Part shown: piece by piece, positions 10,823 to 40,798 of the stretch
Position numbering within the stretch: position 1 is the first letter of the stretch
Layout: every line of letters starts with the position of its first letter
From: a virus
Direction: 5' to 3' (one strand)
Virus record (IMG/VR): IMGVR_UViG_3300042894_002308
Coordinates: 1 to 64,000 of that record
Length of the DNA: 64,000 nt
Notes under the pieces: model-generated
What the model saw: the letters and a program-made list of their open reading frames with translations, nothing else
Database searches by the model: none
What the model was told of the DNA's origin: nothing
Made by a program: the position numbers and the translations under genes

Positions 10823-12316
10823 TTAAGCCTTTTGCATTCCAGAAATCTTCTGAGATACATCAGATCCTTTATTATTCTTAGCAATCATATCAAATAATTT
10901 TTTACCTTTAGGATGCTGAAGCATATCAAGCATTTGCATGATTTCAGGTGACCCTTGAAGTTCTGGGAATTTTCCTTGTTTATACTTATCCAATAATTCT
11001 TTACCAAGATTCTTAGATGTTTCAAAGGGCATGTTAATATCAATATGTGGTAGACCTTTTTTCTCCATCCATGCTTTTGCACTTGTAATTTGTGCAGGAA
11101 TTTCTCTATTACTTAAATAGTCTCTGCTACCAATTGCATTTTTTAACGCGGTATCTCGTATATATTGTTTTAATCTAGGAAACTCTGTTTGCAAATCATA
11201 AGTTCTAGTTAAATGTTTTTTTAATTCAGCATCCATAAAACTCTGTGATTTTGGTGATAAATCACTAAAGGTTTTAGCCGTATCAACTTCTTTTGCAAAT
11301 CCTCTTTGCATTTTGTGAGTGTGATCTACCGTGCGGAAAGCCGTATCAAATAATCCTGCATCTGTTGATGGAATAGCATCAGCATAATATGAACGAACAT
11401 CTGTACCAGTCTTTTTATAGACATCATCAATTTTACCTAATAAATTTTTAGTAATATTTCCAGGTGTAGTATGACCATAATCCATAACACCAGCTAATGC
11501 AAAATTAGGATTCTGATGTCCAGAAACATGTGTCCATTCATGAGCAATAATACCAGGCATTTCCCCTTGTAAATTTGGATGTGCTACTTGTGTAATGTTC
11601 ATATTAATTGCTGGAACTCTTTGACCATTTAATATTCTTTGTGGTGCATCCATAGAAAATGCTCCAGCACCAACACCAGGAGTTAAGTCAGCACGCCCTG
11701 GTTTTACTTTATCTGTTCCATAATGTGTCCCAACGTGAATATCAACAGGTTTTTCTAATGCTGCTTTAGTATAATCTGGAGGTAAAAATTCACTAGGTTT
11801 TTCTGGCTGTAAATAATTTCCTCTTAATTGGAGTTTTTGTGCTTTGTCTGCTAATTCAGCATATGATGCGGCTTTCTTTCCATATATTCCTTGTAAAACG
11901 TCCATTCCAGTTAAAGTTGTTAGAGGTTTGTCTATATCAGGAACAACACCCCCTATTGATTCAACGGATTTAATATTTCCTGGAGTTGCAGCAACTCTTG
12001 TATTTAAAAACTGTTGATTAAAGGGATCCGTCAGATTAAAATCATAAACAGGTTTTCCAAATCGATTTTTTTCCCACGTTTTAGCAGTATCAATAACTTC
12101 AGTTGCTGCTTGTTGAAGTGGTTTAAATTCTTTTGCAATTTCTCCGGGAACTCTGGCAACCTTAGCAACCTCTGCTGCTTTAGATATTTCTCCAGCCGAC
12201 TTTACCATTTTAACAATATCACCTACTCCACCTTCATTTAACAAATTTTGACAATAATTAATTTTTTCTTGAATATTGTCACAGCGAGTTTTGTATAAAT
12301 TTGTTAATTGATCCAT
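10823..12316 (-). CDS. Putative virion-packaged zinc metallopeptidase (HExxH)
   Basis: IIAHEWTHV and downstream EIPA; N-terminal leader ending LLNE; late promoter TATAAATA at 12336-12343. Confidence 0.7.
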   Translation of the reverse strand: MDQLTNLYKTRCDNIQEKINYCQNLLNEGGVGDIVKMVKSAGEISKAAEVAKVARVPGEIAKEFKPLQQAATEVIDTAKTWEKNRFGKPVYDFNLTDPFNQQFLNTRVAATPGNIKSVESIGGVVPDIDKPLTTLTGMDVLQGIYGKKAASYAELADKAQKLQLRGNYLQPEKPSEFLPPDYTKAALEKPVDIHVGTHYGTDKVKPGRADLTPGVGAGAFSMDAPQRILNGQRVPAINMNITQVAHPNLQGEMPGIIAHEWTHVSGHQNPNFALAGVMDYGHTTPGNITKNLLGKIDDVYKKTGTDVRSYYADAIPSTDAGLFDTAFRTVDHTHKMQRGFAKEVDTAKTFSDLSPKSQSFMDAELKKHLTRTYDLQTEFPRLKQYIRDTALKNAIGSRDYLSNREIPAQITSAKAWMEKKGLPHIDINMPFETSKNLGKELLDKYKQGKFPELQGSPEIMQMLDMLQHPKGKKLFDMIAKNNKGSDVSQKISGMQKA

Positions 12317-12431
12317 AATATTGCCTATCTCATACTATTTATATTTGACACGGCTCATTCTATGAAGTATACTAATGAGGATAAATAAACAGTATGTTAA
12401 AGAATACAATAGACAGACATACAGTTAATTT

Positions 12432-12506
12432 GGTCCTATCGTCTAGCCCGGTTTAGGACCTGAGATTTTCAATCTCAGTACATGGGTTCAAATCCCATTA
12501 GGATCA
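12432..12506 (+). tRNA. tRNA-Glu(UUC)
   Basis: Acceptor GGTCCTA/TAGGATC, anticodon arm TGAGA-TTTTCAA-TCTCA, T loop TTCAAAT; promoter TTGACA(12345)-N17-TATACT upstream. Confidence 0.92.
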
Positions 12507-12508
12507 CT

Positions 12509-12709
12509 ATGAATGACATTGAACAACGTTTGAGAGATATGGCTGATAAGTGGCGCACAGTAAACCAAGAGGTTTATAATATGTGTCGTGATGCAGCAGA
12601 AGAAGTACGTGTACTTCGTGTACAGCGTAATTCTGCGGTGGAAACTAAAGACTCTATAATTGATGCCTACAACCATGGAACTGGTTGGGGGAAAGGAAAA
12701 GACGAATGA
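12509..12709 (+). CDS. Hypothetical protein (MNDIEQRLR...)
   Basis: ATG immediately after the tRNA; overlaps next gene by ATGA. Confidence 0.6.
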   Translation: MNDIEQRLRDMADKWRTVNQEVYNMCRDAAEEVRVLRVQRNSAVETKDSIIDAYNHGTGWGKGKDE

Positions 12710-13161
12710 ACCCGAATGAAGTAAAAGAATATACAGATCCACTTGACAAATTGATTGCGGACTATCCTTCTGTGTTTAAAGACATGGATCAGAATACTGC
12801 ATATGGTCTTCCTAGCGGTTGGTATGTGCTTGTAGACAAACTATGCTCAGATCTTGCTATTCTTCTTGATGAAGAACACAAGAACGTTCAAGAGAATCCT
12901 CTAGAGCCTTTGTTTACTGTTTTACAAGTCAAGGAAAAGTTTGGTGGTCTTCGGTTTTATTACAGAGTAAATACGGAGAATGAAAAACTATATCATGAGA
13001 TTGGAAAATTGGTTGATAAGGCAGAAGAGGCTTCATACAAGACGTGTGAGATAACAGGAAAGCCTGGAACTCGTTGCAGTTCTGGAATGTATTATCACAC
13101 CTTCTGTGAAGAAATTCGTATTGCTAATCACTTTAACCTTGTAGAAAATGGAAACACGTAA
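12706..13161 (+). CDS. Conserved phage hypothetical protein
   Basis: GW..L..L, QVKEKFGGLRFY, S..TCEITGKPG motifs typical of a widespread phage family. Confidence 0.75.
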   Translation: MNPNEVKEYTDPLDKLIADYPSVFKDMDQNTAYGLPSGWYVLVDKLCSDLAILLDEEHKNVQENPLEPLFTVLQVKEKFGGLRFYYRVNTENEKLYHEIGKLVDKAEEASYKTCEITGKPGTRCSSGMYYHTFCEEIRIANHFNLVENGNT

Positions 13162-13417
13162 AATGAAACCTATTGGTAAATGGATTGTCGCAAAGTCTTT
13201 AGTTGGTGGAGAAAAGAAAAGTGAAGCAGGTATCATTTTTCAAGAAAAATCTAAGTACAAGATAATTCGTGCAAAAGTTCTGGCTGTAGGTAATAAACTT
13301 ACAGAAGACATTAAAGTTGGTGATGTAATTCTTTGGGACGTAACAAAGATTAAAGATGGTCATGCTGGTAACCATATCGTACATCAAGACTGGGTTGAAA
13401 TGGTTGAGCGAGATTAA
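13148..13417 (+). CDS. groES: GroES/Cpn10-like co-chaperonin
   Basis: MKPIGKWIV, KSEAGII, VLAVG, IKVGDVI. Confidence 0.75.
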   Translation: METRKMKPIGKWIVAKSLVGGEKKSEAGIIFQEKSKYKIIRAKVLAVGNKLTEDIKVGDVILWDVTKIKDGHAGNHIVHQDWVEMVERD

Positions 13418-14271: not shown

Positions 14272-14290
14272 ACAATTATTTATGGAAAAG

Positions 14291-14319
14291 AAACAACCCC
14301 AAATATATTGGGGTTGTTT
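14291..14319 (-). terminator. Rho-independent terminator
   Basis: AAACAACCCCAA/TTGGGGTTGTTT hairpin with a T-rich tail on the minus strand. Confidence 0.7.
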
Positions 14320-14348
14320 AACCTAAGATATATTCTTAAGTAAATTTA

Positions 14349-15086
14349 TTATGAACCATAATCCACTAAGTAACTACCACCGATTCCTTGGTGTTGCACT
14401 TTTAGTTTTCTAGCTTTTGCCATTTTAATAAGTTGATCTTCAAATTTGGTGTTTTCCTTGTCTGCATCTAACTCACTTTGACGAATATTTTCTCTAGAAT
14501 CGGCAGCATCCATTCCGGTTCTAATACCTCTAATGTGCCGTAATGCTCCTGACAATCCTTCGTCACTACCAACATCATATTCCACTGGCTTTCCACCGTA
14601 TCCGGTAAAAAGACTAACTCTGGATAAATCTGGTTGAGTAGCAACTTGTTCATCGCCTGGTTCGTCATCTCCATCATTAAACGCATCGACTGCGCTTACT
14701 TCATTAAGAAGTCTTGAAACTCTTGGGAAACCACCATAGTTCATGATACCACCATGGATTTCACGACCTTCCTTGATCATCTTCTTTTTCTCAGCCATCT
14801 TCTTCTTGATAGCCTTATCCTTGGATCCAAAGTATTCATCTTTTGATGACTCTACTTCACCATCGCCATCATAGTCCTTGTTAGCCTTTTTATCGGCTTT
14901 CTTGCCAGACTTTTTGTCATCCTTTTTGTCACCCTTTTTGGATTTCTTAAATTTACTAATATCAAATTTCTTCTCAAGAAGATTGATTTGAGAAGAAAGT
15001 TCTTCGGAAAGGTTCCGATAAGAATTTTCTAATTGGGACTGAAGTTGTTCGCAAAGATTACGGTAATAGTTTTCTAAGTGTTTCAT
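14349..15086 (-). CDS. Charged late protein, probable prohead core/internal protein
   Basis: Leader LENYYRNLCEQLQ (tandemly duplicated), DYDGDGEVESSKDEY..KDKAIKK motif; TATAAATA 5 nt before ATG. Confidence 0.75.
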   Translation of the reverse strand: MKHLENYYRNLCEQLQSQLENSYRNLSEELSSQINLLEKKFDISKFKKSKKGDKKDDKKSGKKADKKANKDYDGDGEVESSKDEYFGSKDKAIKKKMAEKKKMIKEGREIHGGIMNYGGFPRVSRLLNEVSAVDAFNDGDDEPGDEQVATQPDLSRVSLFTGYGGKPVEYDVGSDEGLSGALRHIRGIRTGMDAADSRENIRQSELDADKENTKFEDQLIKMAKARKLKVQHQGIGGSYLVDYGS

Positions 15087-15103
15087 AATATTATTTATAT
15101 CTT

Positions 15104-18100
15104 TTATGGGGTTACAATAAGCTTTGTAGTTAAGCTAAATGTATTTCCTGCTGGAATAAGCCCAACGGTACTTATATTAAGCATTTTATGAACTCTAGGG
15201 TTACCAATATTTGTACCACTTTGAACTAATTGAGTAAAATCATTAAAACCAGTTTGTCCAATTGTAATGCTAAAATTACTAGTAATTCCCATTGTCACGT
15301 TATCCCAAGCAGCAGTCCATCCAGTTCCACTTCCTGTTATAGAAATTCCATTTGTATTTCCTGTATGGAATCGATAAACTTCTAATCCTGCTGTTACTCC
15401 GATAGTTTTATTAAAGTTATCAGAAATTGTTATTGTTAACGGATTATTAAAACCATTTGAATTCCAAATAATATTTCTTGTACAATTATTAATATTAGTG
15501 TATGCACAGGTTCCATCAATAGTAATATTACCAGTAGTTGCACCAAGTGTTGCAACTGTAATAGGAGCAGCAACTACAACACTTCTAGCAACAGCATCAA
15601 CCTGCATCATATTATGACCAGTAGCTTCCATTAGTGTGTCCATAGGATTTATTAATAATGGATTTGAAGTATCATAATCGACACCACAGTCCATAAGAAT
15701 AACTTTATATCCTTGATACACACTTATATGTGCTTGATCGGTATGTTTGTGTCCTTCTTTAACTGATGATCCCTTTGCCCAGATAGCATAATGTGGTGTA
15801 GCTGTATTACCAAATGTACCAGAATTAATAGCATCATATGGATTACCAATGACTGATGGTTTGTCTCTACCAGTTCTCCAAATGACTTGTTGTTTATCTG
15901 GATAAAATTTATAATTTGGAATCGTTAATGCTGCAGTAATACCTTGAGCCGCAATAGTATATTGTAAACCCTGCAAATCAGGAAGACTTCTGGGGAATAG
16001 ATATTTAAAATTAGCTAATGCTGTATTACCTTGGTATGACAATACACTTGCAAGAATAGACGGCCAATAATATCCTATAGTATAATCTGCTTGTTGACCA
16101 CCTCTATTATCTTGACAATTAATAATATAATTTCCAGGTAATTGAGAATCAATAGCCCATTGCCAATAATTTTGTAGAAATGGGAACTTGACTGGATCTA
16201 CGAGTCGTGTATCTCCAGTTGCAACCATATAATTAACTGAATTGACCATTTCACCAACAGTTTGTTGGGCATAACCAAATCCTTCAGCAAATCCACCATC
16301 AGCACCTTCATAAGCAAAAGATTCAGCTAATAGTGCAACACCAAGATTATATGATGGTAAGAACTTTTTATCTCCAAGATATAAAGAAATGTTTAGTAAA
16401 GCCGCCGCTGGTTCAATCCATTGATTGGTATTTGGTTGTCCGGATCCAGTAGGCAATCCTGTTAACTGTCCTTTAGTATACCAAGCATATTTTGATTCCC
16501 AGTTGGCAACTAAACCATAAATTTCACCTTCTAACAATCCTCTTAATTTAGTTTCTAAGCCAGTTGTCATACCAGCCGTACCCAATGCATGCATCATAGA
16601 AATTACACCGTTGTTATACCATGCACTTCCTAGATATTTTCCATCATTGACTGGCTCATTTCCAGAATAAATTAATAAATTAGGATTGAAATCACAATCA
16701 CTAATAGTCCATCCATATCTTTCAAATGGAACGTGAGTAGAAATTTCACTTAAAATTGTATTTGCATTATTTAATACTGTTGCTTGATATGTTGTACTGC
16801 CAGGAGATATAGAACGTCCATCTGCAACTCTTGCATCACCAACTTTCCAACCAAATGCTAAATTAAACCCTGATGTACGAATCCAGTTTCCTATATTAGT
16901 ATCTGAGCCAGTCAAAGCAACAATTTGTGTAATCATTGGATTACTACAATTTGACAAAGAACCATTCGGTGTTATAGTACTAGAATATCGATTATATAAT
17001 GGAACATCAGCATTTGTATATGCTCTCGTATATCTTCCAGTCTCTGTTTGTAATGTTGGAAGATAATTATTTGCTAAAGAAGCCAATTGAGCAGTAACAG
17101 TTGAACCCGTTGTTGTAAAGATACTTGGGTCATATGGCACATATGATAAGTTTCCATTATATGCAGTAAGACCTTGAATGAATGTTGAACCTCTTGAAAT
17201 AACAAGAGCACAATCTTGTGTAAGTGGTCCTGTATCTCCGGCATAAGATTTAAACAATCTTGCTATTTGAACTGCTTTAGATATTCCAGCTTGGAGTGCC
17301 AACCTTTGTACATCTGCAGTTCTTCCGTCTACATTAGGTGGCATTACACCCGTTGTTCCTCTCCATACTTCATCATTACCTAAAGGTAGAGTGTATTTAA
17401 AGGCATAACTTGAAAGAGCAGTTTGTGGAATTGTATATATTGAAGTTTGTGTATCACACCAAAGATCATTTAATACTTTTCTGGCTTGATAAATGTATGA
17501 TCCAGCTACACCAAAATTACCTGGCAATACTCCCCAACAATTTCCTGCTGCAAATTTGGAAATATTAATAATATATTGTAATGGGAACCATATAAACATT
17601 TTCTTAACACCGGCATCGGTTGCTGGTTTAAGAGTATAAGTTCCCAAATGAGGATTAAAGCTTACAAGTGATTGGTAATTTTGTAATCCAGTATAACCTG
17701 TTATCGAATTACTAGCTGTGCCGGTTAATATATATTCACTCCCATCCGAAACAGTAAAACTACTAAAGATTTGTGTTGGTACTGATTTTGGATAATTATT
17801 TAATAATACTTGACTAGCACTTAAAGTATTATTATATATAAGTTGTGATGAAGCTGCATCGGTATCCTTTGCATATTTAAAGGCATCGGTGTATTTTGGA
17901 TAGGCTTCAATATCTACACGATCTGTGTTAGCTTTGAATAAGGATATTTTATTTTGATGTTGTGTCTTTAATCGAGTTTTTTCATTTTCATAATCAACAA
18001 GCGTAACTGCAGTTGATTTACCAGCCCATGTGCATGCATTACCTGTAGTAAATGCAAAATAGTATGGTAATGATGGGCAGTTATATTCATAAATTATAGA

Positions 18101-21100
18101 ATTAGGAGAAACGGCTTTAGTATAAGCTAATAGATTATTAAGAAGATCAATTGCTTTTGCGCATGATAAACCAGCAATTGGATCAACATCTCCATTAATA
18201 TAATTTGTCATATCAGATTCATAGTCAAGAACTAAATGATATGGATCTATACCAAAATAATTTTTATTTGCTGTATTCCCATAAAATTGATTAAGAGAAG
18301 TTCTTACCAAATTTTGATACGATGCCCCATTTACTGTAAAATTTGGTCCAAAACTAGCAGATACATTCTGTTCATATAAAAGTTCACCATATTTAATATT
18401 GTTAGCCAACATCGGTGGAATCGTTGCGGCTCTTTCGGTAGCATTAAATGATAGATTAACAATATCAGTAACAACCTCAATACCATTGGAAGCTTCTACA
18501 GCTTGTGTCATTGTTAATGGGTTATAACTAAATGCCGATGCTCCAGGAAGATTGAGAACTCCTAATCTTTCTGCTTCTGATACTGGTGGGTTTTCTACTA
18601 CTGGAATTTCATAACGGTCTGTATTCCACCATATACCAAATTTATTATTAGGAGTTCCAATATAATTTGTAATACCATTTACATAATATGCTGTTGTAAT
18701 ACCACTAACAGATCCTCTTACAATAATTGGAGATTGTGTTGCTGGATGAGCAAAGGTAATACGCCAAACATAATTACCATCAACCTTCTGTGCCCCCGAG
18801 ATAATGTATGATCTTTCATCCATATTCATTGGAGCAAGATATGTTGTTTCCCACACAGTACCATTACCAATAGTTTGGCATTCTCCAATAACAGTATTAA
18901 TTTTTCTTGCGAGTGCCATTTTAATAGCACCACATATACCCATGCAAGTAAGACCACCAATTTTTGTTGGAGATGTTTGTGCTTGAGTGTATCGTCTTCC
19001 ACCAAAACATACTGATTCATTCATAAATGATAATGGAGTTCCATCCGAAGCAGTCATATCATATATACTAGGATTCCAATAAGAATAACGTCCAGTTTTA
19101 TTTAAATACTGATGGCGTATATTTTCATAATACATTGGTCCTGCTTCACCATACATAAATGTAAAGCCGTCTAATTGAGTTGATTCTGCATCAACTCTAG
19201 TACGATATCCAAATGTTAATCCTTCAGGAATATAATATGCACTACCAAATAAATTAGATTCATCACTAATGTCTAGGCTAGCATCACTAGTCCATTTTTG
19301 ATGAGCAACCCATGTATTAATTGGTTTTTGTATTCCGTACCAATTACTTCCTGTTATCTTGGGATGATTGTTAGGATCATTTCTTTCATATATTGCTTTC
19401 GCTACATTTGATTTGGCTACTTGTCTTCCCCACTTAACGTCTGACATTAATGCCATATATCCCATTGGATACCAATGAGTCCAATAATTATTATAAATTG
19501 TTCCAGCAGGCAATGTATTTCCTGGGAATGGATTACCACAAGGATCTACTTTATCAACTGAAATAGTAGTATTGGCTCCCGTCCAATATTTTGTTTTGCC
19601 TCCAAAAGATAATCCATTTAATGTATCGGGACCATATAATGGTATATAATTAGCTGGACCTGCAACATAACCAGACGATAGTCTATTAACATTAATTCCC
19701 CATACTGGATTTAAATGCCAGGAAATATAATGTGGTGCTCTATCAAAACCAACTTTAGTTATACTTGCTGCGCAGGAACCATTAGATCCTGTAGGATCAT
19801 ATCTAAAGAACCCAGTACTTCCCATTATTTCAGCACATGAATAGCATTGAAGTATTTGTGCAGGTCCACTGATTCCGACCCAATTTGCAGGTACCCATTT
19901 TTTAGCATATGTTGTACTTGCTTCGGGAGAAGAATATCCATATTTTCTACCCATTGCTCCCCACGACCAATACCAACCACCAACATTTTTACCATATGTA
20001 ATACCATTGATGACTAATCCGTATGTATTACCTCTCCAATCTAAATTTCTATCAATAATTCTTGGAGAATTGCTATTTGGGTCAATATCTGCCATTATAC
20101 CGCCGTAGGCATGTATTGAACCAACATCACCTACTTGTTCTGTATATAAATTTTGACACGACTCTAAACTAAATGCATCATTATACTGATAATAATCTTG
20201 CATTCTTTTATCAGATGCTGATGTAATATTATTAGTAACAAACGGAACATAATCAGTACTTGTACGAGTTAATGCATCACTAATATGATCTTTAGTATTA
20301 TTTACATAAAAATTATTTGTATAAGATGGATTTGTAAAATTAATTACTGCATTATTTAATTTGTAATATCCATAATCCGCAGATAATGAATTGTCGGCAA
20401 CAATTCCATTATATAATTTAAAATCATCTACCATATCAGTCCAGTGACCAGCATACCAATCTTTAATTGCAGCTTGATGTTCATATCCTAAAATTTCAAA
20501 TGACCCATCACCTGCAAGATTTCCTGGTACATTATCAATAGATCCACCTATGGCAGTCAAACCTTCAACATATCTCCAATTTGATGGATTACTTGTAAAT
20601 CCCTTTGCCAAAAGGTTTGCTCGCATAGAAGTGATGCCACGAGTAATAAAAGAATCTGGAGCAGCAGATGCACCATAAAATGTTGAATACCATTTAGATC
20701 CAGTTGGTGTATTATTAGGATAGAGCCATTTTGAATAAAAATTGGAATCACCAATACGTATTCCTCCGGATATACCAATACCACGATAGTCTAGATAACC
20801 ATATATTTCATCATCTAAATCAAAATGTGCCATGGTAAAACCATTAGCAGAAAGATGTGAATATATTGCCTTTAACTCGGCACGTAGGAAATTCATTTTG
20901 CGTTTTAACCATGGGGTTTTAAACGCGGTAGAAGATCTACGATCACCAGTTAACACAATAGCTTCGGTATCCATAATCGGACTATTAGATTCTGCTCTCC
21001 ACCACCTACTTGCCATCACAACTCTATATTTGTTTGGAATCCAACTGTGGTCTTGAATTACTCGGTTTAATCCAGCAATACTATAAAAACCAGTTGCACC

Positions 21101-24343: not shown

Positions 24344-24383
24344 TATTTGACTTTTAAGTATTGTCTCGTATACTATTTATATT

Positions 24384-24764: not shown

Positions 24765-24774
24765 ATTATTATTT

Positions 24775-26934: not shown

Positions 26935-26957
26935 ATAAACCGGAGTATACTCTTATT

Positions 26958-27423: not shown

Positions 27424-27431
27424 GGAAAGAT

Positions 27432-28075: not shown

Positions 28076-28100
28076 AAAAACCCCCGAAAGGGGGTTTTTT
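28075..28100. terminator. Bidirectional rho-independent terminator
   Basis: AAAAAACCCCC-GAAA-GGGGGTTTTTT between convergent genes. Confidence 0.9.
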
Positions 28101-29644: not shown

Positions 29645-29654
29645 ATATTATTAT

Positions 29655-30044: not shown

Positions 30045-30057
30045 TTCAATTAATGTT

Positions 30058-30615
30058 TCAATGTTGGCACCCGCAATCATTTGCACTCGTTTCCATATTA
30101 TATGAAGAAGATTCAGTTGGAACTATGACAAATGTTACGCGTCGCAAATGGTTTGGTTGTTTTTCAATATTTACACTAAGCGCAAGAGAATAACCAAGTT
30201 TTTCCTTGATTCCATCTCCCTGACTAAAACCAGTTTTGTTAACATCATCATAAGGATTTTGTCCGTATATACCTAGCTGTGGGCTACCATATTGGACTAA
30301 CTCTAACATATTTAACCCATCACTTAAACTCTTTTTGGGCATACCAAAATCTAGTCCAACAAGATTTAATTTATTTTTTACAACACCAAGAACGCCATCT
30401 GGATCAATATAATCTCTAGATGACAAAGAGTATAACATTGCGTTTATCGCATCAATGTGTCTTGGCATCTGAAGATTGTGGGTACCTTTGTCGGTAAGCA
30501 CAGATGGACCTAGTTTTCCTTGTGGATCTCCAATATAAAGACCACCACCAAAGGTGTGTTCACCAGCATTTTCGACAAGTTCATTGATTTTATTGAGAAG
30601 GGCTTTAAATTTCAT
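30058..30615 (-). CDS. Late hypothetical protein
   Basis: AAGGA SD; leader-like MKFKALLNKINELVE. Confidence 0.7.
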   Translation of the reverse strand: MKFKALLNKINELVENAGEHTFGGGLYIGDPQGKLGPSVLTDKGTHNLQMPRHIDAINAMLYSLSSRDYIDPDGVLGVVKNKLNLVGLDFGMPKKSLSDGLNMLELVQYGSPQLGIYGQNPYDDVNKTGFSQGDGIKEKLGYSLALSVNIEKQPNHLRRVTFVIVPTESSSYNMETSANDCGCQH

Positions 30616-30624
30616 GGCTTTCCT

Positions 30625-31383
30625 TTATTTAGTTCTGTATTTTATTAGTCCATATAAATCTGAATTGTATTCAATATTATTCAAATTTTTGAGAGTATCG
30701 TGGGCAATACTTTTAATAAAGTCCTTGCACTTCCCACCAGGTGAAACGTTTTCTTTTAACATAGAGGTTACGGATTTAGTACTCCATGTTTTGCATGCCC
30801 AATACCGTGCTTTCCATTTTGGTCCCGGATTATCACAGTTATGACGAGCACGAAAGTTTTTGCGACGAGCAGGATCATCGCGTTTAATTTCCATGGTCTT
30901 ATCTCCAAAATTTACTTTAACAACATTTCCTTTATCATTCTTGACGTAAACTTTATATTTTTTTACATCACCTTTCATGATCTTATTGAGCTTTACTTTT
31001 TTATTTGCTTCTTCATGAATTTCAATGATATCACCGTATTCGTTGTATTCTTCACCCTCAGTTACATCAACAAATCCAATAATTTTATTTGGAGCAAAAG
31101 TTTCAATTAGTTCACATCCGTTTTTATCTGTGAACGTTACCTTATAGTTATTTTCATTAATTTCAATTGCATCAACATTTAAAATGTTTCCAGATTCATT
31201 TATAACAACATCACATGGTTTAATATCTTTAATTTCTATAGATGAAAAAGGAACAGATGGTATATAAGTCATTGTTTCAACAATGAATTTGTTGGAAGAT
31301 TGTTGAATGGCTATGACACGTTCATTCAAACCAACTTTGGTCTGAATCTTGTTCATAATCATATTGACATATTTCCTACTCAT
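30625..31383 (-). CDS. Late protein with conserved basic domain
   Basis: KKYKVYVKN..VVKVNFGD..RRKNFRARHNCD..KARYWACK.W. Confidence 0.75.
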   Translation of the reverse strand: MSRKYVNMIMNKIQTKVGLNERVIAIQQSSNKFIVETMTYIPSVPFSSIEIKDIKPCDVVINESGNILNVDAIEINENNYKVTFTDKNGCELIETFAPNKIIGFVDVTEGEEYNEYGDIIEIHEEANKKVKLNKIMKGDVKKYKVYVKNDKGNVVKVNFGDKTMEIKRDDPARRKNFRARHNCDNPGPKWKARYWACKTWSTKSVTSMLKENVSPGGKCKDFIKSIAHDTLKNLNNIEYNSDLYGLIKYRTK

Positions 31384-33755
31384 TTCCAGCTATCCTTATT
31401 TTGTTTTTCACCTTCGTGATGACCATTATCAGATCTATTAGCAGAACGATCTCTTACACGTAAATTATTTATACCGTTTGATCCACCACTACGAAGAGCT
31501 TTTTTATGGTCAATGTCTTTACCATCTCCTTTTTTAGCTCTTCCTTTTTTAATCATTTCTTCTCTGGCTTTAGTTCGTGATGCACGCTCTTTGCGTTGCT
31601 TTGATTTACCATGATAATTCTTGTATTCTTTTTTGTAATCTCTTTCGTATTCTTCTTCAATAAAATCTTTTATTAAAGTTTGTAGCAATAGTGGATTACT
31701 TTGAATTCTTGCTTTTGCATTTTCAAAAATTGATTTCATATTGATCATTACATATTCAGAATCTTCCAAAAGCATGTTTCGTGAATTCGATATTAATGCA
31801 CCTTCAGAATCATTTAAGATTTCATAGTTTACCAAATTAGCTAAAACAAAATTATTTGTAAGTGCTTCAACAAGAAGATCATTTAACATTATAATTTCTT
31901 CACCAAGAACTTGGTTGGTGACATTATCATCTGTTAATACTGGAATCTTAGTTGTTTTATTGTCTATTGTAATGTAGTTATATTGAATCGAATTAAGATC
32001 TTTTGGTTTGAAACCAGGCAATAAACTGGCATTTAATGAGAAATCATTATTACTAGTTATATAACCAACCATGATCTGCATTGGATCAATTTTGGTTTTA
32101 TCTACTAAGATATCTTTCAATCCCATTTTCTTTTGTTTGGGTTCTGTTGCTTCTACTACAGTTGTAAATTTCTTTAACTGTTCTGCTGCAGCAGGATTAT
32201 ATCTTTGTATGTTGGATGCAGTCATTACATCTTTAGCCCGTTTGACATCTAATGTAGCATCATTTGAAATGCTATCAAAATAATCATCTGTCATCGGTAA
32301 AATACCATTAACAGTTATAAGATGATTGGGTGCAGTCTCAGGAGGAACAATTCCATCACCACGTAACATAGTTTTTAATAGGTTTGATGATACATATTTT
32401 TTAAGAGGATTATCTTTTTTACCTTTTAATAAATCGTATGCACCGTCTTCCCATGCTTTTTGATAATTGATCATAGATGCTAGAGGATTTAAATTTCCTT
32501 CTTCATCTACTACAGTTCCTATTTGTTGTCCGGATGCATCTTTAATAGGAGTGTTTTGTAATTTTTTCAACATTTCAGGATCCTTGCGAATCTCTGACAT
32601 GGCGTTATCGGGAACAAGCATTTGAGAGAACTGAGAAGCAATTTCACCAGTTTTTTGTAGAGTCTCAGAAATTCTTGGATCTGATGCTGTTAGATCAGGG
32701 TTGCTTAAGGCTTGAGTCAAAGCGTTAGCCACAAAGCCTTTAAAGTTTTTATTTGATTGATTGAAATCGGTTGATGAAAAAGCTATTTCACCACCAGCAG
32801 CAACCTTGAAACGGTACTCACCACAAGACATATCGGAAGCACCTTCAGAATTAACTGGCTTACCTGTTGTCTCAACGTTTGTTAAAAGAGTTTGTAGGCA
32901 CTGATCACCAATCTGTGATAAGATTTTTCTGGCAGTAAAGAACGCAGTTCTGGTAAATTCTCTACCACCTGGAGCCAATGCAAGATATGTTTGCATTTCT
33001 TGTTCGCTTGCGCCTGCTTTAATCTTAGCAAGAAAAACAACTGCATTCAATACTTGTTGGTTGTAAGGAACTCCGCTTATGTCACTTAGACCGTATGCTA
33101 CAGTTAGTTTTTCATAAGTTAATTCATCAAAATCAGAATTAGGAGTGGGCTGACGCATCATCTGGAAATACTGATTACGCAGTTCAGGTGGCATTTGAAG
33201 CAACTGTTCTGGTGTCATCTGAGTCATGGTCTGGAACATTTGTTCCTTATCCATTTTCTTTGCTTTGGTTTTTTCAGACTTTTCAGTTTCTTCTGCTGAC
33301 TTTGGACTTACAGATTTTCTCTCTGAAGTTTCTTCTTTTTTCTTAGATCTTTCGTCTTTATCATCACTACCTTGTTTCACATTTCCAAATAATAATTTAG
33401 AAGCTCTGGTCTGTTCAAACCCCTTTTCTTGGGTAGCTCGCTTGGCTTCATCAACAGTCATGTCTTGTTTATTAAGTTTTTGGTGATATCCCTTGTTAAA
33501 GGAATCTTTAAAAATTAATTGTACATTTCCACTGTTTGTCTTTACTAAAATAACATCTTTAATAAGTTCTTGTGCAGGCTTCTTATCTCTTGGTATCTGT
33601 TTGGATCTTTCAATTTTTTTACGGGCTGCATCTTTAGCTTTATTGTCACCAGCACCAGCTTTTGCTGTTTCCAACTGTCCAGCCATAGCAGAACCATCAG
33701 CCTCATTAAGGATTGCGTGTTTGGCAATTTGATTTAAAAAAGTGTTAAAGTTCAT
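31380..33755 (-). CDS. Large late protein with C-terminal HNH nuclease domain
   Basis: RDYKKEY..GDGKDIDHK..NGINNLRV..NRSDN; leader ending ILNE. Confidence 0.75.
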   Translation of the reverse strand: MNFNTFLNQIAKHAILNEADGSAMAGQLETAKAGAGDNKAKDAARKKIERSKQIPRDKKPAQELIKDVILVKTNSGNVQLIFKDSFNKGYHQKLNKQDMTVDEAKRATQEKGFEQTRASKLLFGNVKQGSDDKDERSKKKEETSERKSVSPKSAEETEKSEKTKAKKMDKEQMFQTMTQMTPEQLLQMPPELRNQYFQMMRQPTPNSDFDELTYEKLTVAYGLSDISGVPYNQQVLNAVVFLAKIKAGASEQEMQTYLALAPGGREFTRTAFFTARKILSQIGDQCLQTLLTNVETTGKPVNSEGASDMSCGEYRFKVAAGGEIAFSSTDFNQSNKNFKGFVANALTQALSNPDLTASDPRISETLQKTGEIASQFSQMLVPDNAMSEIRKDPEMLKKLQNTPIKDASGQQIGTVVDEEGNLNPLASMINYQKAWEDGAYDLLKGKKDNPLKKYVSSNLLKTMLRGDGIVPPETAPNHLITVNGILPMTDDYFDSISNDATLDVKRAKDVMTASNIQRYNPAAAEQLKKFTTVVEATEPKQKKMGLKDILVDKTKIDPMQIMVGYITSNNDFSLNASLLPGFKPKDLNSIQYNYITIDNKTTKIPVLTDDNVTNQVLGEEIIMLNDLLVEALTNNFVLANLVNYEILNDSEGALISNSRNMLLEDSEYVMINMKSIFENAKARIQSNPLLLQTLIKDFIEEEYERDYKKEYKNYHGKSKQRKERASRTKAREEMIKKGRAKKGDGKDIDHKKALRSGGSNGINNLRVRDRSANRSDNGHHEGEKQNKDSWK

Positions 33756-33761
33756 CTCAAA

Positions 33762-34364
33762 TTATTTAGGCTCCTGGGAATGCTTATATTTTTCTAAAGG
33801 ATTATAAACTTTTAAATTTTTATAAGTTTTAGCTTTGCCGTTTACCAGTTTTTTAAGAGCAGAATAGTCTAGATTGTTTTGCTTGGCAAACTGAGAAAGA
33901 TTGGGAATAGTCATAACTAAGTCAGTTGTAGTATCAACCAATATGTACAATTTTGTAGTCATTATGGTTTTGGCTTTTGGTTCTTCCAATTTTTCATGAG
34001 AACCAATTCCATCTTTTACTTCACGAATTTCGACTGCTGTCCAACCTTTGTAAGTCTTTCGTTTACCGTTTAACAGTTCACAAATCTTTACAGAAGTCAT
34101 GCCTTGACTTTCTGCAAATTGAGACATATCTTTAAAAAAAGTCTTTTCTCCAGTATCAACTCGTTTTAGCCAATACCCATTTTTTTCTGCAATTGGATTG
34201 GTCCATTTCCAATATCTTCCATTTCTAGTAAAAAAACCACCATGTGTGTCAATGAATTGACTTCTGTGTTTTATAGCCTTAGAATTATCATTCATCATCA
34301 CCCAAAGTTTTGTTCCTCTGGTATTGACAGTTTCTTCTAAAGTTTTTTCTTTATGAAATTCCAT
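33762..34364 (-). CDS. Repeat DNA-binding protein (homing-endonuclease-associated/NUMOD-like repeats)
   Basis: Two copies of SQFA..(GM/NL)....L.NGK.KTYK. Confidence 0.6.
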   Translation of the reverse strand: MEFHKEKTLEETVNTRGTKLWVMMNDNSKAIKHRSQFIDTHGGFFTRNGRYWKWTNPIAEKNGYWLKRVDTGEKTFFKDMSQFAESQGMTSVKICELLNGKRKTYKGWTAVEIREVKDGIGSHEKLEEPKAKTIMTTKLYILVDTTTDLVMTIPNLSQFAKQNNLDYSALKKLVNGKAKTYKNLKVYNPLEKYKHSQEPK

Positions 34365-35031: not shown

Positions 35032-35067
35032 TTTAATTATAACAGCATATTTAAACTATGCAATTAT

Positions 35068-36486
35068 TTATCGCATAACTTGTCGTCGTGCATATTTACC
35101 AACCAATTCTAAACCTAAGCCAAGATCAATTTCTTGTTTTCTACCTTGTTCTTCATAAGGTTTACTTTTAACATCCGAAGATCCAAACATAAAGAATGGT
35201 AAGGATTCTTTTGGTGTGGGTTCCTTTGGTAGAGGTGTCTTTGGGGGAGTTGGTGTTTTTGATGGTGGTGGTGGTGGAGCAGGGGGAACTGGACCTGGTG
35301 GTGGAGGTACCGGTGGTGTTGGAATTGGTAAAGGAATTGGTCGGGGAACTGGCACCGGTGCTGGAACAGGTGCTGGAGTTGGAGTCGGAGTAGGCGTTGG
35401 AGTCGGTGTTGGAGTCGGAGTCGGAGTCGGGGTAGGTGTTGGAGTAGGCGTTGGAGTAGGCGTTGGAGTCGGAGTTGGTGTTGGCGTTGGAGTCGGAGTT
35501 GGTGTTGGAGTCGGGGTAGGTGTTGGAGTAGGCGCGGGTGCTGGAGCAGGAGTTGATGCTGGTGTGGAGGCTGGAGCAGGAGTTGATGCTGGAGCTCGTT
35601 TAGTAGCTCGTTTAGGAGTTGAAGAAGGTGTTGGCTCTGGAGCACGAATTAGTTCAGGTGGAGGCTCTACCTTCACAACAGCTGGTTTTAATGAATCTAA
35701 ACTTGATTGATAATCCGCCCACTCTTCTGGTGTGAATACTCCTTCAGGTTTTTCTCCTTTAAAGTAAGAAGATGGTGTTGAATATGGTTTTCCACTAGAA
35801 CTATTTCTAACAATATCTTCGGCATTTTTAATAATTTGTTCTGCAGCATCATCAACTTTTTCCAAAGCTTGTTGTAGCTCTGGTTCTAATGAAACATTTT
35901 TTAACGCTGGATGTTCTTTTATTGTAGAACGAATAAGCTCTCTTAAATCTGATCCACTCGCAACACCTTCTTTAGAATAATCAAATGCTAATTTTTGAAC
36001 ATAATCTAAAAGTTGTTCTGCATATGCTTTTGCAGATTCTCCAGTAAATTTTGGAACCCAATCAGTTGGCGGTAAACCAATTTCATTTGGAAAGAATTTT
36101 GGTTTTGGAGCAGCAATTAATTCTGGTGTTACACCAAGTTTTGGTAATGTTTTTGCTGGCTCTGTTGATAATCCTATTTTTATTGCTTCGCCTGCTGTTT
36201 TTGCTTCTTTAGCAACTGCAGCCTCTTTAGCTAATTTTTCTGCTTCTGTTGCTATTTTAATTATTTCTCGACCACTACCTTCATTTAATGAATAATATTT
36301 TCTTTTTGGATATGATTCTTCACCCAACATAACACTATGTGTTTGTTTAATAACATTCTTTAAAATATTCTTACTTAATTCTTTTGAAATTCTAGATTCA
36401 AAATAACCGCTTTCTAATAACAATGCAATATATGCATTGGTTTGATAACGATATTCTAAAATTGAATGAAGAAAAGAACTTTTCAT
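35068..36486 (-). CDS. Late protein with shared leader and long (PT)n/Pro-rich region
   Basis: Leader [21 protein letters not shown] shared with neighbour; ATAAATA 5 nt before ATG. Confidence 0.8.
35375..35535 (-). repeat. Tandem hexamer repeat encoding (Pro-Thr)n
   Basis: Degenerate GGAGTC/GGAGTA/GGTGTT/GGCGTT units with synonymous variation. Confidence 0.9.
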
Positions 36487-36494
36487 ATTATTAT

Positions 36495-37982
36495 TTATGA
36501 GGCTGGTGGAACTGGAGGAGTCTTTAACAACTCATCTGCTCGTTGAAGAATTGTTTTTAAGTCTTCTCTATCTCTTGGTCGATTGCTTTTAGTCCAGTTT
36601 CTAGAAAACGCCGTTTGTTCTTCAGGAGTCATTTGTGAATAATCTTTTGCACGAGCAGATAATGAATCATCGTAAGTTTTATTTTTTGCAGCAGTTTCTG
36701 CATCTCGTTCTGCTGCACGGCGCGACATATATGCTTCAGTATCAGCAACTTTTTTGTTTTGTGCTTCTTTTGTTATTCTATCTAACTCAGCTTGTTTGGC
36801 TATTTCGGCTGCTTCTTTTTCTGCTTGGATTTTTGGTGCATTATAAGATTGCAAATCCATCATAAGTTTTTGACGTGCTGTTAATTCTTCTGGAGAGAAA
36901 AGCGTACTTTCTGCTTTTCTTCTGGCTAATTCATAATTTAAATCTGAAACCTTTTGTTTGACTTCATCATAATATGGTGAAAGTTCTTCAACTGTTTTTG
37001 AACCTTCTGAAGCTCTAGATGCAGCAGCTTTTTCAGCAGCAGATATTGTGCTTGATATTTCGGCTTCAGGCATTCCTATAGAGCCTGTCCAATCTATATT
37101 TGGTTGGGCTTCTTGTGCTCTTTTTCCTGTTTCGATGTCAAGTTTAAGACGTTTTCCTTCTTGTTTTAAAAATCCTTTAAGATCAAAAATATCTTCAGGA
37201 GCCATTCCGGTTTCTTTTGTAAGTTCCCCAGCAGTAGTCAAATCTTTAGTTGCTCCAGAGTAATCACGTAACATACTCGGATCAAAAGATCTTCCGGATT
37301 TTTGAGCATCCGCAGCTTGTTCGGCTGCTTTTATTATTTCTGGAGCCGCATTATTTACTCTTGTTAATTGTCCATATACAATTGGATCCGCTTTATCGAT
37401 TCCTTGAAATACAGGAAGATTTTGTATATTTTGTCGTACTAACTCAGCTAATTCATCTCCACGCTTTCCTTCTTGTGCTAGTTTTAATGCTTCATATTGA
37501 ACCCGATTCATTAAAACATTTGCACCAGCAGCTACATGTTTTGGAACTTCAGTAACTGCAGTTATACCATCTCCCACTGTTGGAAGATCAATGAATGATC
37601 TAATTGGTTGCTTTACAACAGCAGTAGATACAGCTTTCGCTGCTTCTCCCGCTTCTGCACCTAATTTTCCTACTTTGGTTGCTGCTTCAAGTTCTCTTGC
37701 AGTTCTAGCGGCTTCCATGGCTTTCATGGCTGCATCTACACCACGAGCAACTTTTCCGACTCCAGCTTGTTCATTTAGCTGATATTTCTTTACTAAAGAT
37801 TTGGGGTACGGTAATACACCCTCTGCAATTAAATTGGTGCTTTGTATTACTTGCTTAAGAATATCAGCACTGCAACTATTTGAAATTTCAGGGCTAAAAT
37901 AATTATTTTCATTTAACAAAGCAATGTATGCATTTGTCTTATAACGATAATTTAAAATGTGTTCTGTTATTGTATTATTCAT
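36495..37982 (-). CDS. Ala-rich late protein, paralog of the downstream gene
   Basis: Leader [25 protein letters not shown]. Confidence 0.8.
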
Positions 37983-38002
37983 GATATTCTACAAAGTATT
38001 TA

Positions 38003-40798
38003 TTATAATTTTGGAGCTCTTACAAATCCAGAGGATGGTTTATTTACCTTATCCCATGTAGTAGACTGCATTGGAGATGGAATCTCTGTAGCTAAATTTC
38101 TGTTTCTTTCTCTTTCTTTACGTGTGTGATATTCCAATTCAGCACTAGACGGGTATCTAGTTGGCTCTGGAGCATATTCTTGTTGAGTTGGCATACCTCT
38201 ACGCATACGATATTCTTTAGCTCTATCAGTTTCACTATCACCCACAACATAATTTACAATATCTTCCCCAGTTTCTGCATATGTTTTTGGTCTAGTTTTT
38301 CCCGTAACTTTGTCAGCAACTTCAAGACCTAACATTTGTGGAGTTTCAAAATCACGCAAAGCTTCTCCAGCTTTAAATCCACCATAAGCTACAACTGGAA
38401 CAAGAGCACCACCTATTGCACCAGATACTAATTGAGTTCCTAAACCTGATACTAAAGGAGCACCTCTCAAAGCATTCATATATACCTGTCCAGCACCAGA
38501 CATTGCTGACCAATCTGCAACACTTTGTATTTCTTTGCTTAAATTTGGTAATTCATTCATTTCAGTAGCTGGATCCATACCAATATAATCAGTACCTAGT
38601 TCTGCACCTCTACGAGCTAATTCACCAGCAACTAAAGGGACAACTAAGGCACCGCCTACTTGTAAAGCAGTTTTTCCAACAGTTGTTGCTGCTGGAATTG
38701 GATTTTTTACAGCATATTCAACAGCAGAAACACCTTTTTTTGCCATGTTTACTGCAGATTTTGCAGAATCTACAGGATTCATTACTGTATTGGCTACACC
38801 TTTGCCTATACTAGTAAATGTAGGAACTGGATTTGGATTACCAATTAAGTCTGTACGAAGTTCTTTTCCACTAAAAAAAGGAGGAGGAATTACAACTGCT
38901 TCGCCTACCATAGCCACTCTTGTGGTTTCTTTACGTTTTCTTTTACTTCTTCTAGATGTCTTTTTGCTATCTGATGTACCAAGATTTTTTAATATATCAT
39001 TAATTTTATCTTGTGTTGATTGTTGATCAGCAGCATCTTGGAAAGGTTTAATAATATCTTTTACATAATCTCCAGCAGGTTTTGATGTTGTTTCTTTTTT
39101 ATCAGGAAAATCAGAGAGATCCATTGGTTCATTCATTCCACCAGTGGATTCACTATCATCTTTTATATTATAATCTTCAGCATCTAGTTCAGTTTTTATA
39201 TCTGGATTAAACGGACTTGGAATTGTATATGAGTATGCTGGTGGTTCTGAAGGAGTTTTTGCTTGTGTATCCATCATCGGAGCAGATATATCACCATACA
39301 ACTTATCTTGTATAACATTTGGATTAGTTTGTGCTGTATTTAACTTCATTATTCTTTGTAATTCAGCTGCAACATTTTTTCCAGAAGCTCCAACAGATGT
39401 AACCAGATTATTAATAATATTGGATACTCCAACACCAGGAGGTTGTCTATAAGTAGAATCTACTTGACCTTCAGGATAAATTGGAGACTCTCCACGGTTA
39501 ACATCAGGATTTACTCCAGTTTCAGGATAGCGAACACCTGGAGAATTCAGTGATTGTTTTTTCATCCAATCAGATCCGCTTCTCATCATATCTTGAAGTG
39601 TATTTGTTGCAGTATCAGTAACAGAACGTTGAGCGTCTGATATACCTGTTCCAGGTTTGGATCGGTCTACATAAGGACTATATCTAATAGGATCAGCAGC
39701 TGTTCCACTTCCATACAAATTTTCATCATTATTATCTCTAAGTTGAACATCAAAATTTCCACCACCATCTCCTCGTATAGGTTCTTTAATTGTTCTAGAA
39801 CCATCTTTGTTTAGAGTATCACTAATTTGATCTATGTAGCCTTGTCTTTTTTCTTTTGTATCTGTAGCATTTTTCAAGGCAGCAGCTTTTTGTTCAGCAC
39901 CAACAATTCTTCTAGCTTCTGCTCTAATTTCTGCATCTCGTTTAGCTGCTTCCGCATCAATACGTTTTAATGCTGCAGCATCATCGGCATCCCATTGAGC
40001 TTTGCCTCGTGATTGTGATGTTGTATTGGCTATGGTACCATCTACAGTATCATACCTAGCCTGTGGAGTTCCAAATTGTGGAATATTGGCTGGTCTACGA
40101 CGCATGGTATGGTATGCAAGACTATCGTATGCAGGCCCCTGTCCTACACCAGCGGTTGGAGCAACATTTGATTCACCTGAAGAATTTAAATCAAAAAATA
40201 ATTGTCTGTGTTTTGCATTTCTTGCATCATAATCTTCACCAGTTGCCTTTTTAAAATCATCCTGAGTAACCCAGTACATTGGACTAATTCTTTTATTTGC
40301 ATTTACAGTAGTTAATGCTCTTTCTTGTCCTGCTGCTTTATCTTGTAGTTGTTGTTGATATGCATCTGGGTTTTCTCTACGAAATTTATCAAGTTTTTTT
40401 CTATCATCTATATCTTGTTTATCTCTAACTTTTATTCCCTGTGCTATATTTTCTTCTTTGGTGTGTTCTCTCCAATTCCAATCACCTGCTTTTTCATTTA
40501 AATTTTTTGGAGTATTAGCAAAAGCATTTCCATAGACATTACTACCATGTGCTGCACTATGTGAAGCCCCTAAATTCTTAGATTGTTCCATTGCACCAAT
40601 AGCATTATTAATAGTATTTGGAGAACTAATAGATGGATTAAACGAAGATGGTCTATACAACTCATTCTTGTTTAATACATTTTTTATGTTTTCAACCAAT
40701 GAAGGAGAATTTTTCTTTTCCTGTGGAACAGGATTTGGAGAATTCCCCATAAATTGCTTGACTTCCCAATAAAATTGTCTATCTTGTTTATTATCCAT
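38003..40798 (-). CDS. 931-aa late protein, probable ejected/internal protein with C-terminal Gly/Ala-rich hydrophobic helices
   Basis: CTAAATA upstream; LVE and LNE sites; GGALVVPLVAG and GAIGGALVPVVAYGG segments. Confidence 0.75.
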   Translation of the reverse strand: MDNKQDRQFYWEVKQFMGNSPNPVPQEKKNSPSLVENIKNVLNKNELYRPSSFNPSISSPNTINNAIGAMEQSKNLGASHSAAHGSNVYGNAFANTPKNLNEKAGDWNWREHTKEENIAQGIKVRDKQDIDDRKKLDKFRRENPDAYQQQLQDKAAGQERALTTVNANKRISPMYWVTQDDFKKATGEDYDARNAKHRQLFFDLNSSGESNVAPTAGVGQGPAYDSLAYHTMRRRPANIPQFGTPQARYDTVDGTIANTTSQSRGKAQWDADDAAALKRIDAEAAKRDAEIRAEARRIVGAEQKAAALKNATDTKEKRQGYIDQISDTLNKDGSRTIKEPIRGDGGGNFDVQLRDNNDENLYGSGTAADPIRYSPYVDRSKPGTGISDAQRSVTDTATNTLQDMMRSGSDWMKKQSLNSPGVRYPETGVNPDVNRGESPIYPEGQVDSTYRQPPGVGVSNIINNLVTSVGASGKNVAAELQRIMKLNTAQTNPNVIQDKLYGDISAPMMDTQAKTPSEPPAYSYTIPSPFNPDIKTELDAEDYNIKDDSESTGGMNEPMDLSDFPDKKETTSKPAGDYVKDIIKPFQDAADQQSTQDKINDILKNLGTSDSKKTSRRSKRKRKETTRVAMVGEAVVIPPPFFSGKELRTDLIGNPNPVPTFTSIGKGVANTVMNPVDSAKSAVNMAKKGVSAVEYAVKNPIPAATTVGKTALQVGGALVVPLVAGELARRGAELGTDYIGMDPATEMNELPNLSKEIQSVADWSAMSGAGQVYMNALRGAPLVSGLGTQLVSGAIGGALVPVVAYGGFKAGEALRDFETPQMLGLEVADKVTGKTRPKTYAETGEDIVNYVVGDSETDRAKEYRMRRGMPTQQEYAPEPTRYPSSAELEYHTRKERERNRNLATEIPSPMQSTTWDKVNKPSSGFVRAPKL

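Follow-up and report, generated by a model that had tools for sequence, protein, structure and literature searches.

The internal proteins of bacteriophage T4 are made with N-terminal propeptides of 10-19 residues that have affinity for the prohead core and are removed by the gp21 protease, as set out in the relevant portions of two accounts (PMC9026906, PMC3012670). Long N-terminal propeptides with redundant cleavage sites after Glu are described, together with gp21-related proteases, for the giant phages phiKZ, 201phi2-1 and SPN3US, where many of the internal head proteins carry one, including members of paralogous families (PMC9026906, in the portion concerned with these phages). Here we compare with these systems two sets of N-terminal leaders, termed family 2 and family 3, encoded in the first 64 kb (64,000 nucleotides, hereafter the window) of a 135,768-bp IMG/VR virus record, IMGVR_UViG_3300042894_002308, whose estimated completeness is 75%. 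An initial annotation of the window had proposed that these leaders are packaging labels shuffled independently of the proteins that carry them. We consider it probable that family 2 is a long T4-type capsid targeting sequence (CTS), cut at [Leu/Ile]-x-Glu, and that family 3 is a separate, folded prodomain.

Like the T4 CTS (the propeptide of IPI, IPII, IPIII and Alt), family 2 is N-terminal, stands on unrelated and often basic late proteins and ends in hydrophobic-x-Glu, and as in the T4 system the phage has a gp21-family protease, a T4-type scaffold and a short T4-type leader on at least seven proteins. Unlike the T4 CTS, which is given as 10-19 residues in the corresponding portion of PMC9026906, family 2 has 23-31 residues and two or three extra internal L-x-E sites, and family 3 departs further, as a 70-residue domain that is predicted to fold and appears not to be portable. 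Targeting and cleavage are proven for the T4 CTS and proposed for families 2 and 3. A T4 review reports that placing Asp at the site of the cut prevents processing yet leaves targeting intact. The giant-phage propeptides, as described there, are in keeping with family 3 and with the several L-x-E sites of family 2, but differ from family 2 in that they belong to paralogue families instead of forming one tag on unrelated bodies; the phages themselves are distantly related. Giant-phage proteases also use a different cleavage motif. The cargo-loading peptides of encapsulins and scaffold-derived tags share the logic of a short portable peptide that sends cargo inside an HK97-fold shell. Such tags generally sit at the C-terminus, attach to the shell protein and stay on the cargo; for families 2 and 3, no likeness to the scaffold was found in tests against shuffled sequences.

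Judged from its genes, the source of the DNA is an uncultured, distant T4-like myophage. No close DNA relative was found among 50,697 GenBank phage records; the closest named record, judged by the capsid protein, is Phage C48C1, and the capsid protein has 53% identity to that of Phage C48C1 and to cyanomyovirus capsid proteins. The genome encodes a Peptidase_S77 protein of the T4 gp21 prohead protease family (G000:C1:99298-99945; E 3.2e-39 in one run and 6.6e-38 in another), a T4_CASP scaffold (E 1.6e-53) and a Portal_T4 protein (E 2.3e-166), and the replication genes in the window are T4-like (family B DNA polymerase, UvsX-like recombinase, DnaB-like helicase, primase, ThyX and ribonucleotide reductase). 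From its family membership we assumed that the protease uses the T4 cleavage motif. Relatives of the scaffold number 542 in IMG/VR, and at least four of their contigs also carry a family-2 gene. We called 158 open reading frames (ORFs) in the whole genome, which serve as the reference set in the all-against-all, motif and isoelectric point (pI) comparisons given below.

The four proteins singled out by the initial annotation were all present with the N-termini quoted there, on the minus strand, and their leaders close with L-N-E at residue 28, L-L-E at residue 38 and L-N-E at residues 69 and 71. Two of them represent family 2. In P0001 (497 aa, 10823-12316, minus strand) the leader comprises residues 1-28 (12233-12316) and is followed by an Ala/Lys/Glu-rich helix and a body with an invariant HExxH, and in P0002 (245 aa, 14349-15086, minus strand) it comprises residues 1-38 (14973-15086), after which come a stretch rich in Lys and a body module of wide occurrence. 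The proposed likeness of the two leaders is weak when they are taken as a pair (10 of 29 residues identical, E 0.015) and becomes solid once two members from outside the window join them, P0017 (G000:C1:132085-132429) and P0018 (G000:C1:132467-132973). When the first 80 residues of the 158 ORFs were compared all against all, these four formed a connected cluster with pairwise E-values of 1e-9 to 1e-3, and in a Smith-Waterman scan with the 28-residue leader of P0018 its three fellow members scored 97, 72 and 61, with no score above 40 among the other 154 ORFs. When 66 leaders, the genome's own four included, were combined into a profile, this matched those four ORFs alone in a six-frame translation (E 2.6e-16 to 8.4e-11; next match 0.29), the most divergent copy being that of P0001 (E 8.4e-11 with its own copies in the profile; Smith-Waterman score 61). 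Beyond the leader the four proteins are unrelated, and no two of their bodies match at an E-value below 0.3. The tandem duplication annotated in the P0002 leader was confirmed by two overlapping tandem matches of the profile, and corresponds to an internal repeat of 15 residues. Relatives of P0002 with an unduplicated leader were also found as proteins, an RNA-library contig of a relative omits 45 nt (14991-15037), the equivalent of one copy of the repeat, and the duplication seems to be polymorphic in nature.

We then looked at family 2 in other viruses. Scanned with the leader alignment, IMG/VR yielded 244 pattern hits; tblastn confirmed 98 of them, and the best 80 were kept, in 73 loci. The match begins at Met1 of the ORF in 72 of these loci and two residues further in in one, on ORFs that range from 67 to 676 residues, four of them interrupted by contig ends. 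Clustering of the 69 complete proteins together with the four from this genome, on residues beyond position 40 only (blastp E up to 1e-4, single linkage), resulted in 27 body clusters. Four related IMG/VR records that we tested had two to five profile matches apiece, and Phage C48C1 had none. A word-indexed search of 5.8 billion proteins, restricted to those of 92-294 residues, yielded 291 candidates; 106 of these had an E-value of 0.001 or lower, and none of the 106 has a functional name. By these comparisons family 2 is a portable N-terminal tag, and the proposal that leaders move independently of their cargo is upheld for this family by the 27 body clusters among 73 proteins, by the unrelated bodies within the genome and by the leader swaps described below; for family 3 it is not, as the corresponding searches returned orthologues of two paralogues alone. 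The principle of such a tag is known from the T4 CTS. The family-2 and family-3 leaders themselves were not found in print, in agreement with the initial annotation: their motif strings were absent from the literature searched, papers on targeting sequences in T4-like phages and cyanophages had nothing on such leaders in their titles or the opening lines of their abstracts, and tblastn with the leader or with P0018 gave no match in the 50,697 GenBank phage records, a weak negative since the low-complexity filter was on.

The strongest argument is leader exchange, as three cargo families carry differing leaders in differing phages. A HMMER search of 1.84 billion representatives found nine relatives of P0001; in an alignment of the seven longest sequences (P0001 and six of these matches) two have the family-2 leader (P0001 and one other) and five a 10-residue T4-type leader, on bodies that have in common an invariant H-E-x-x-H and a conserved C-terminal domain. 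The body of P0017 is 53% identical (E 1e-32) to an ORF with a short T4-type leader in the IMG/VR locus L022, and the alignment begins precisely at L-x-E on both sides. For the P0002 body, which has 1077 relatives, the best 119 homologues comprise 70 with the classic family-2 leader, 21 with a shortened one, 6 with a hybrid in which a short T4-like start is followed by a family-2-like core, 16 with other leaders and 6 that are unclassified or incomplete. The other leaders are of three kinds, in 11, 3 and 2 copies, each of which closes with L-x-E ahead of the same Lys-rich stretch. As homologous cargo is found with either leader in different phages, the long family-2 leader and the 10-residue T4-type leader look interchangeable on the same cargo.

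A gene start shared by unrelated genes could also be a nucleic-acid element, either a late promoter together with the start of translation or a cassette that spreads genes by recombination, the peptide being incidental. Family-2 genes are indeed located in variable islands beside other leader-bearing genes, and in 22 of 67 copies the ATG is preceded by ATAAATA at a distance of precisely 5 nt. However, across the 67 distinct DNA copies the codons of the conserved residues are near-invariant at positions 1 and 2 and free at position 3, with six codons in use for each of Leu4, Leu11, Leu15 and Leu22 and four for Ser12, while the DNA upstream of the genes is weakly conserved apart from the short promoter motif. 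The entropy at third codon positions and the use of all six Leu codons show that selection on the leader acts at the level of the peptide and not of the DNA, which disfavours a promoter or a recombination cassette as the source of the conservation and leaves this explanation very improbable.

The junction between leader and body was then considered. An [LI]-x-E with its Glu at residues 20-40 is present in 66 of 66 distinct leaders, compared with 35 of the 158 genome ORFs, and shuffling of residues 18-40 left it in 23.5 +/- 3.6 leaders (maximum 35 in 500 shuffles). The positions of the junction Glu peak at 28, 31, 23 and 27, the middle residue is variable (L, N, S and others), and Ala is the commonest residue to follow the Glu (24 of 66); since position and middle residue vary, it is the motif itself that has been kept, rather than a sequence. 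Two more sites occur within the conserved core, L-S-E13 (58 of the 66 leaders) and L-Q-E17 (46 of 66), and a leader cleaved at all of its L-x-E sites would end as small peptides. These features bear on the possibility that the leaders are permanent coiled-coil or docking helices, serving oligomerisation or attachment to virion or host, which are never cut and whose L-x-E is a by-product of helix composition. The family-2 consensus has a heptad-like hydrophobic spacing by eye, the leader is helical in the predicted model of P0001, and the automatic name of one homologue is that of a coiled-coil family, 'BMFP domain' (an unverified label from one source). A helix of this kind would not, however, require that L-x-E be kept in all 66 leaders where 23.5 are expected, that body homology begin precisely at L-x-E as in P0017, or that a 10-residue leader of the cut-off T4 type substitute for it on the homologous cargo of P0001 and P0017. 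In addition, [LI]-x-E is depleted in the 15 leader-bearing bodies of the genome, with 18 observed and 36.1 expected from shuffles (Poisson P 6.8e-4), compared with 69 observed and 65.3 expected in 14 replication and metabolism proteins, the effect being modest (two-fold) and both sets having been chosen by hand. Depletion is the pattern expected for proteins that meet the protease, and we regard uncut helices as an improbable account of family 2. Export or membrane-targeting signals, which are likewise N-terminal, common to unrelated proteins and sometimes cleaved, are more improbable still and hardly credible here, since the leaders have no hydrophobic core, their consensus is polar and charged and the junction motif is of the head-protease type, not a signal-peptidase site.

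Family 3 behaves differently from family 2. The initial annotation described it from P0003 (472 aa, 35068-36486, minus strand) and P0004 (495 aa, 36495-37982, minus strand), and no other two of the 158 ORFs match as well at the N-terminus (E 8.8e-19, with 48.6% identity over 74 residues); the likeness is not limited to the leader but extends over about 235 residues (32% identity, E 2e-24), and the two are by sequence adjacent tandem paralogues. In P0003 the domain comprises residues 1-69 (36280-36486), with the Glu of [LI]-x-E at residues 11, 25, 56 and 69, and precedes an Ala/Lys/Glu helix, the shared middle, a Pro/Thr repeat and a conserved C-terminal tail; in P0004 it comprises residues 1-71 (37770-37982) and precedes a similar helix, the shared middle and a divergent C-terminal half. 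A protein search with the leader only gave nine matches, all nine full-length P0004 orthologues. In IMG/VR one of 59 pattern hits was confirmed, in a syntenic locus with both paralogues, and in JGI metagenomes, scanned with an alignment of the leader only, 7 of 110 pattern hits were confirmed, in four loci that have one or both paralogues in the same order, three of them with the end of a P0005-like gene just upstream. Leader and body thus stay together throughout (nine of nine proteins, one IMG/VR locus and four metagenome loci), and for family 3 the proposed shuffling is refuted.

P0005 (931 aa, 38003-40798, minus strand) is the first gene of a conserved trio, P0005-P0004-P0003, and could be placed in no family. 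Relatives share its N-terminus: the window phage and the relative L002 agree in all of the first 14 residues, although in L002 the protein is divided into two ORFs (537 and 283 aa, 3442-5984), and the N-terminus may be yet another conserved label.

The family-3 leader is the best conserved portion of these fast-diverging proteins. L23-x-E25 and L69-x-E71 are invariant in ten of ten sequences, with N, L, C, V or M and N, H, F or L respectively in the middle, and the leaders have four [LI]-x-E in about 70 residues compared with one or two in bodies of more than 400. AlphaFold2, run on P0004 with a 10-row alignment, predicted helices at residues 4-25, 35-53 and 61-66; averaged in 10-residue blocks, pLDDT was 68 for residues 1-10, 83-92 for residues 11-70 and 47 for residues 71-80, so that the drop in confidence coincides with the last L-x-E site at residue 71. 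No fold match for the domain model was found in BFVD. On this model family 3 is a folded 70-residue three-helix domain. It is not portable, and is probably a prodomain that is removed from two internal proteins rather than a label that moves between cargoes. A compact and confidently predicted domain that is always inherited with its own body could also be described as the ordinary, retained N-terminal domain of a structural or ejection protein, its L-x-E sites buried and unused; in the model L23-x-E25 sits at the end of the helix 4-25. We think this rather unlikely, since the two L-x-E are invariant with a varying middle residue in ten sequences of two paralogues, their density is more than 10-fold that of the bodies, the last of them lies exactly at the modelled domain boundary, ahead of a low-confidence Gly-rich linker, and it is the leader that is best conserved while the rest diverges.

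The cargo bodies tend to be basic. Leader-bearing bodies have a median pI of 8.1, with 34 of 65 above pI 8 compared with 54 of all 158 ORFs. P0001 belongs to no Pfam or PHROG family; H259-E260-x-x-H263 is invariant in seven of seven homologues and located in a predicted helix, and as the motif is invariant the protein may be a packaged metallopeptidase. Its structure model (mean pLDDT 62.6) found no Foldseek match in the PDB at E up to 0.001, zinc peptidases appearing among the weak rows only, and in the ESM Atlas the best scores for the body were 0.84-0.85, below the quotable level, with one row that carries the Pfam family LPD23.

The initial annotation had also held that the mature N-termini resemble one another across leader families. 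The stretch after the presumed cut is an Ala/Lys/Glu-rich helix in P0001, P0003, P0004 and P0143, a P0001 homologue with a short leader. Scored against 1000 shuffles for each pair, the likeness stood for P0001/P0003 (z 5.3, reached by 0 of 1000) and more weakly for P0001/P0004 (z 2.7, 18 of 1000), but not for P0003/P0004 (z 0.4, 337 of 1000). With P0143 the values were z 7.0 for P0001 (0 of 1000), z 6.3 for P0004 (0 of 1000) and z 4.2 for P0003 (1 of 1000). Resemblance above composition is therefore found in some pairs and absent in others, and a second shared module behind three differing leaders is possible.

The initial annotation further proposed that the leaders dock on different scaffold or core partners, which may be so. 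We compared the leaders with the scaffold and with two other proteins of the head-gene cluster, P0147 (228 aa) and P0149 (137 aa). The family-3 leaders had nothing convincing in common with any of the three. The P0004/P0149 likeness, reached by 25 of 1000 shuffles, was not reproduced by the paralogue P0003 (515 of 1000) and was rejected; mimicry of the scaffold by family 2 was rejected as well, on shuffle scores given below. Prediction of a complex between scaffold residues 95-341 and the family-2 leader, both supplied as alignments, gave a score of 0.01, which speaks neither for nor against binding. P0147 (G000:C1:98615-99301, minus strand), outside the window, is an extra gene that separates the protease and scaffold genes and has no counterpart at that place in Phage C48C1. 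Within 37 residues at the N-terminus it has three L/I-x-E sites, ahead of a body rich in Gly and Ala, and it is a candidate for an additional core or internal protein.

To the families, their distribution, the peptide-level selection, the conserved motif and the leader exchange observed above we add the following sequence of events. The family-2 leader, an N-terminal amphipathic helix of 23-31 residues, would most likely bring any late protein that bears it into the prohead core, where the gp21-type protease would most likely remove it and chop it at [Leu/Ile]-x-Glu; the mostly basic body would stay inside the head and then be ejected with the DNA. Family 2 would operate alongside the classic 10-residue T4-type leader in the same phage, and family 3 would be a prodomain confined to one old paralogous pair, bounded and punctuated by invariant L-x-E.

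Several points weigh against this scheme. Packaging, cleavage and ejection are steps that we infer for all these proteins. Neither family aligns with the 10-residue T4 leader of IPII and IPIII, and a scan of the complete T4 genome with the family-2 profile gave no match even at E-values as high as 10. The P0018 leader scored 34 against the scaffold, a value reached by 252 of 2000 shuffles. A helix rich in Leu, Glu and Gln yields L-x-E readily, about 36% of composition-matched shuffles carrying one, and the hand-picked, two-fold depletion in the bodies is joined by that of a control, the primase, which has none where 3.0 are expected. Six of the 119 P0002-body homologues begin with another start and have the family-2-like core some 30 residues from the N-terminus, and placement at the N-terminus is consequently not obligatory. 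The promoter motif at a fixed distance accompanies 22 of the 67 family-2 genes, 33 being without an exact ATAAATA within 60 nt upstream. Finally, the family-3 leader was found on no other cargo in the protein, IMG/VR and JGI metagenome searches, and given its domain-like fold it could simply be a permanent part of its proteins.

The short T4-type leader is represented in this genome by 7 of the 158 ORFs, which match a regular expression and resemble the 10-residue leader MKTYQEFIAE with which IPIII and IPII start in the T4 record. Short-leader genes stand beside family-2 genes here, as in relatives, where 18 of 740 ORFs flanking family-2 genes match the expression and at least 16 look genuine. 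In the window, five tandem small genes occupy 6193-8081 (minus strand), four of which match the expression while the fifth (6501-6674) is alike by eye only; among them a Methyltransf_23 protein with a short leader (6671-7216, minus strand, E 2.7e-8) could be a packaged enzyme. A further 10-residue T4-type leader is found on a protein of 632 aa encoded at 42287-44185 (minus strand), with TATAAATA 5 nt upstream of its start. Two late-looking proteins, at 31380-33755 and 30058-30615 (both minus strand), also start with short N-termini that resemble each other; the first has L-x-E at residues 16-18, kept in its L002 orthologue with the middle residue changed, and the second has I-N-E at residues 10-12.

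Late-promoter-like ATAAATA motifs lie upstream of P0001, P0002, P0003 and P0004. On the minus strand, TATAAATA is found at 12336-12343, 19 nt upstream of the P0001 start codon, and at 15092-15099, exactly 5 nt upstream of that of P0002, and CATAAATA is found at 36492-36499, 5 nt upstream of the P0003 start codon and overlapping the stop codon of P0004. There are 55 ATAAATA in the whole genome, of which 12 stand exactly 5 nt ahead of an ATG, in every case the start of a called ORF, compared with 0-3 cases for each of the other spacings from 0 to 11 nt. Sites in the window with the 5-nt spacing include 8087-8094, 15092-15099, 36492-36499 and 44191-44198 (minus strand). As TATAAATA is not enriched across the window (9 observed, 6.6 expected), only its placement ahead of start codons is telling. 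TATAAATA may be read as a T4 late promoter; if the motif is a promoter of this type, with the usual distance to the start site, the late mRNAs would be leaderless or nearly so. A literature search by words turned up no paper that links 'leaderless' with the promoter motif TATAAATA. Two metatranscriptome runs covered small shares of the sequence, as contigs of relatives; they have no bearing on transcript starts or transcription, and gaps in their cover carry no information.

Some other features of the window were recorded. Between its two family-2 genes lies a 3079-aa ORF without Pfam family (15104-24343, minus strand), with TATAAATA 30 nt upstream; on visual inspection, a unit of about 1000 residues is duplicated within it, filling the first two thirds. 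An ORF resembling HNH and homing endonucleases (33762-34364, minus strand; PHROG 2081, E 1.6e-11; NUMOD-like domain) is flanked by an exonuclease gene and a 791-aa late gene and occupies the same place in L002. The first 8 kb (1-8000) have a G+C content of 0.44-0.49, compared with 0.33-0.40 elsewhere in the window, and encode an AAA_5 ATPase (1261-2640) and a 721-aa ORF without family.

What binds the T4 targeting sequence and how much of it is needed are standing questions in the field; in the relevant portions of two accounts it is described only as having affinity for the core (PMC9026906, PMC3012670). In the clade studied here, two unlike tags are exchanged on the same cargo, with hundreds of natural variants and a sharp boundary between tag and cargo, and this natural exchange offers a comparative handle on the reader of the tag. 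It is tempting to speculate that the clade runs at least three parallel addresses for loading the head, a 10-residue tag, a helix of 23-31 residues and a 70-residue prodomain, that are read by different core partners, the choice of address setting how many copies of a cargo are loaded, where in the head they lie or in what order they are ejected. We regard this as unlikely on present evidence; if true, address swaps on one cargo would be an evolutionary dial and no neutral exchange. The T4 tag has already been used to load foreign proteins into heads (PMC9026906, in the portion on such uses), and family 2 would be a second, longer tag for putting foreign proteins into T4-type heads. It also flags dozens of unannotated families, the putative metallopeptidase among them and with the methyltransferase bearing the short tag, as probable injected proteins of abundant aquatic phages.

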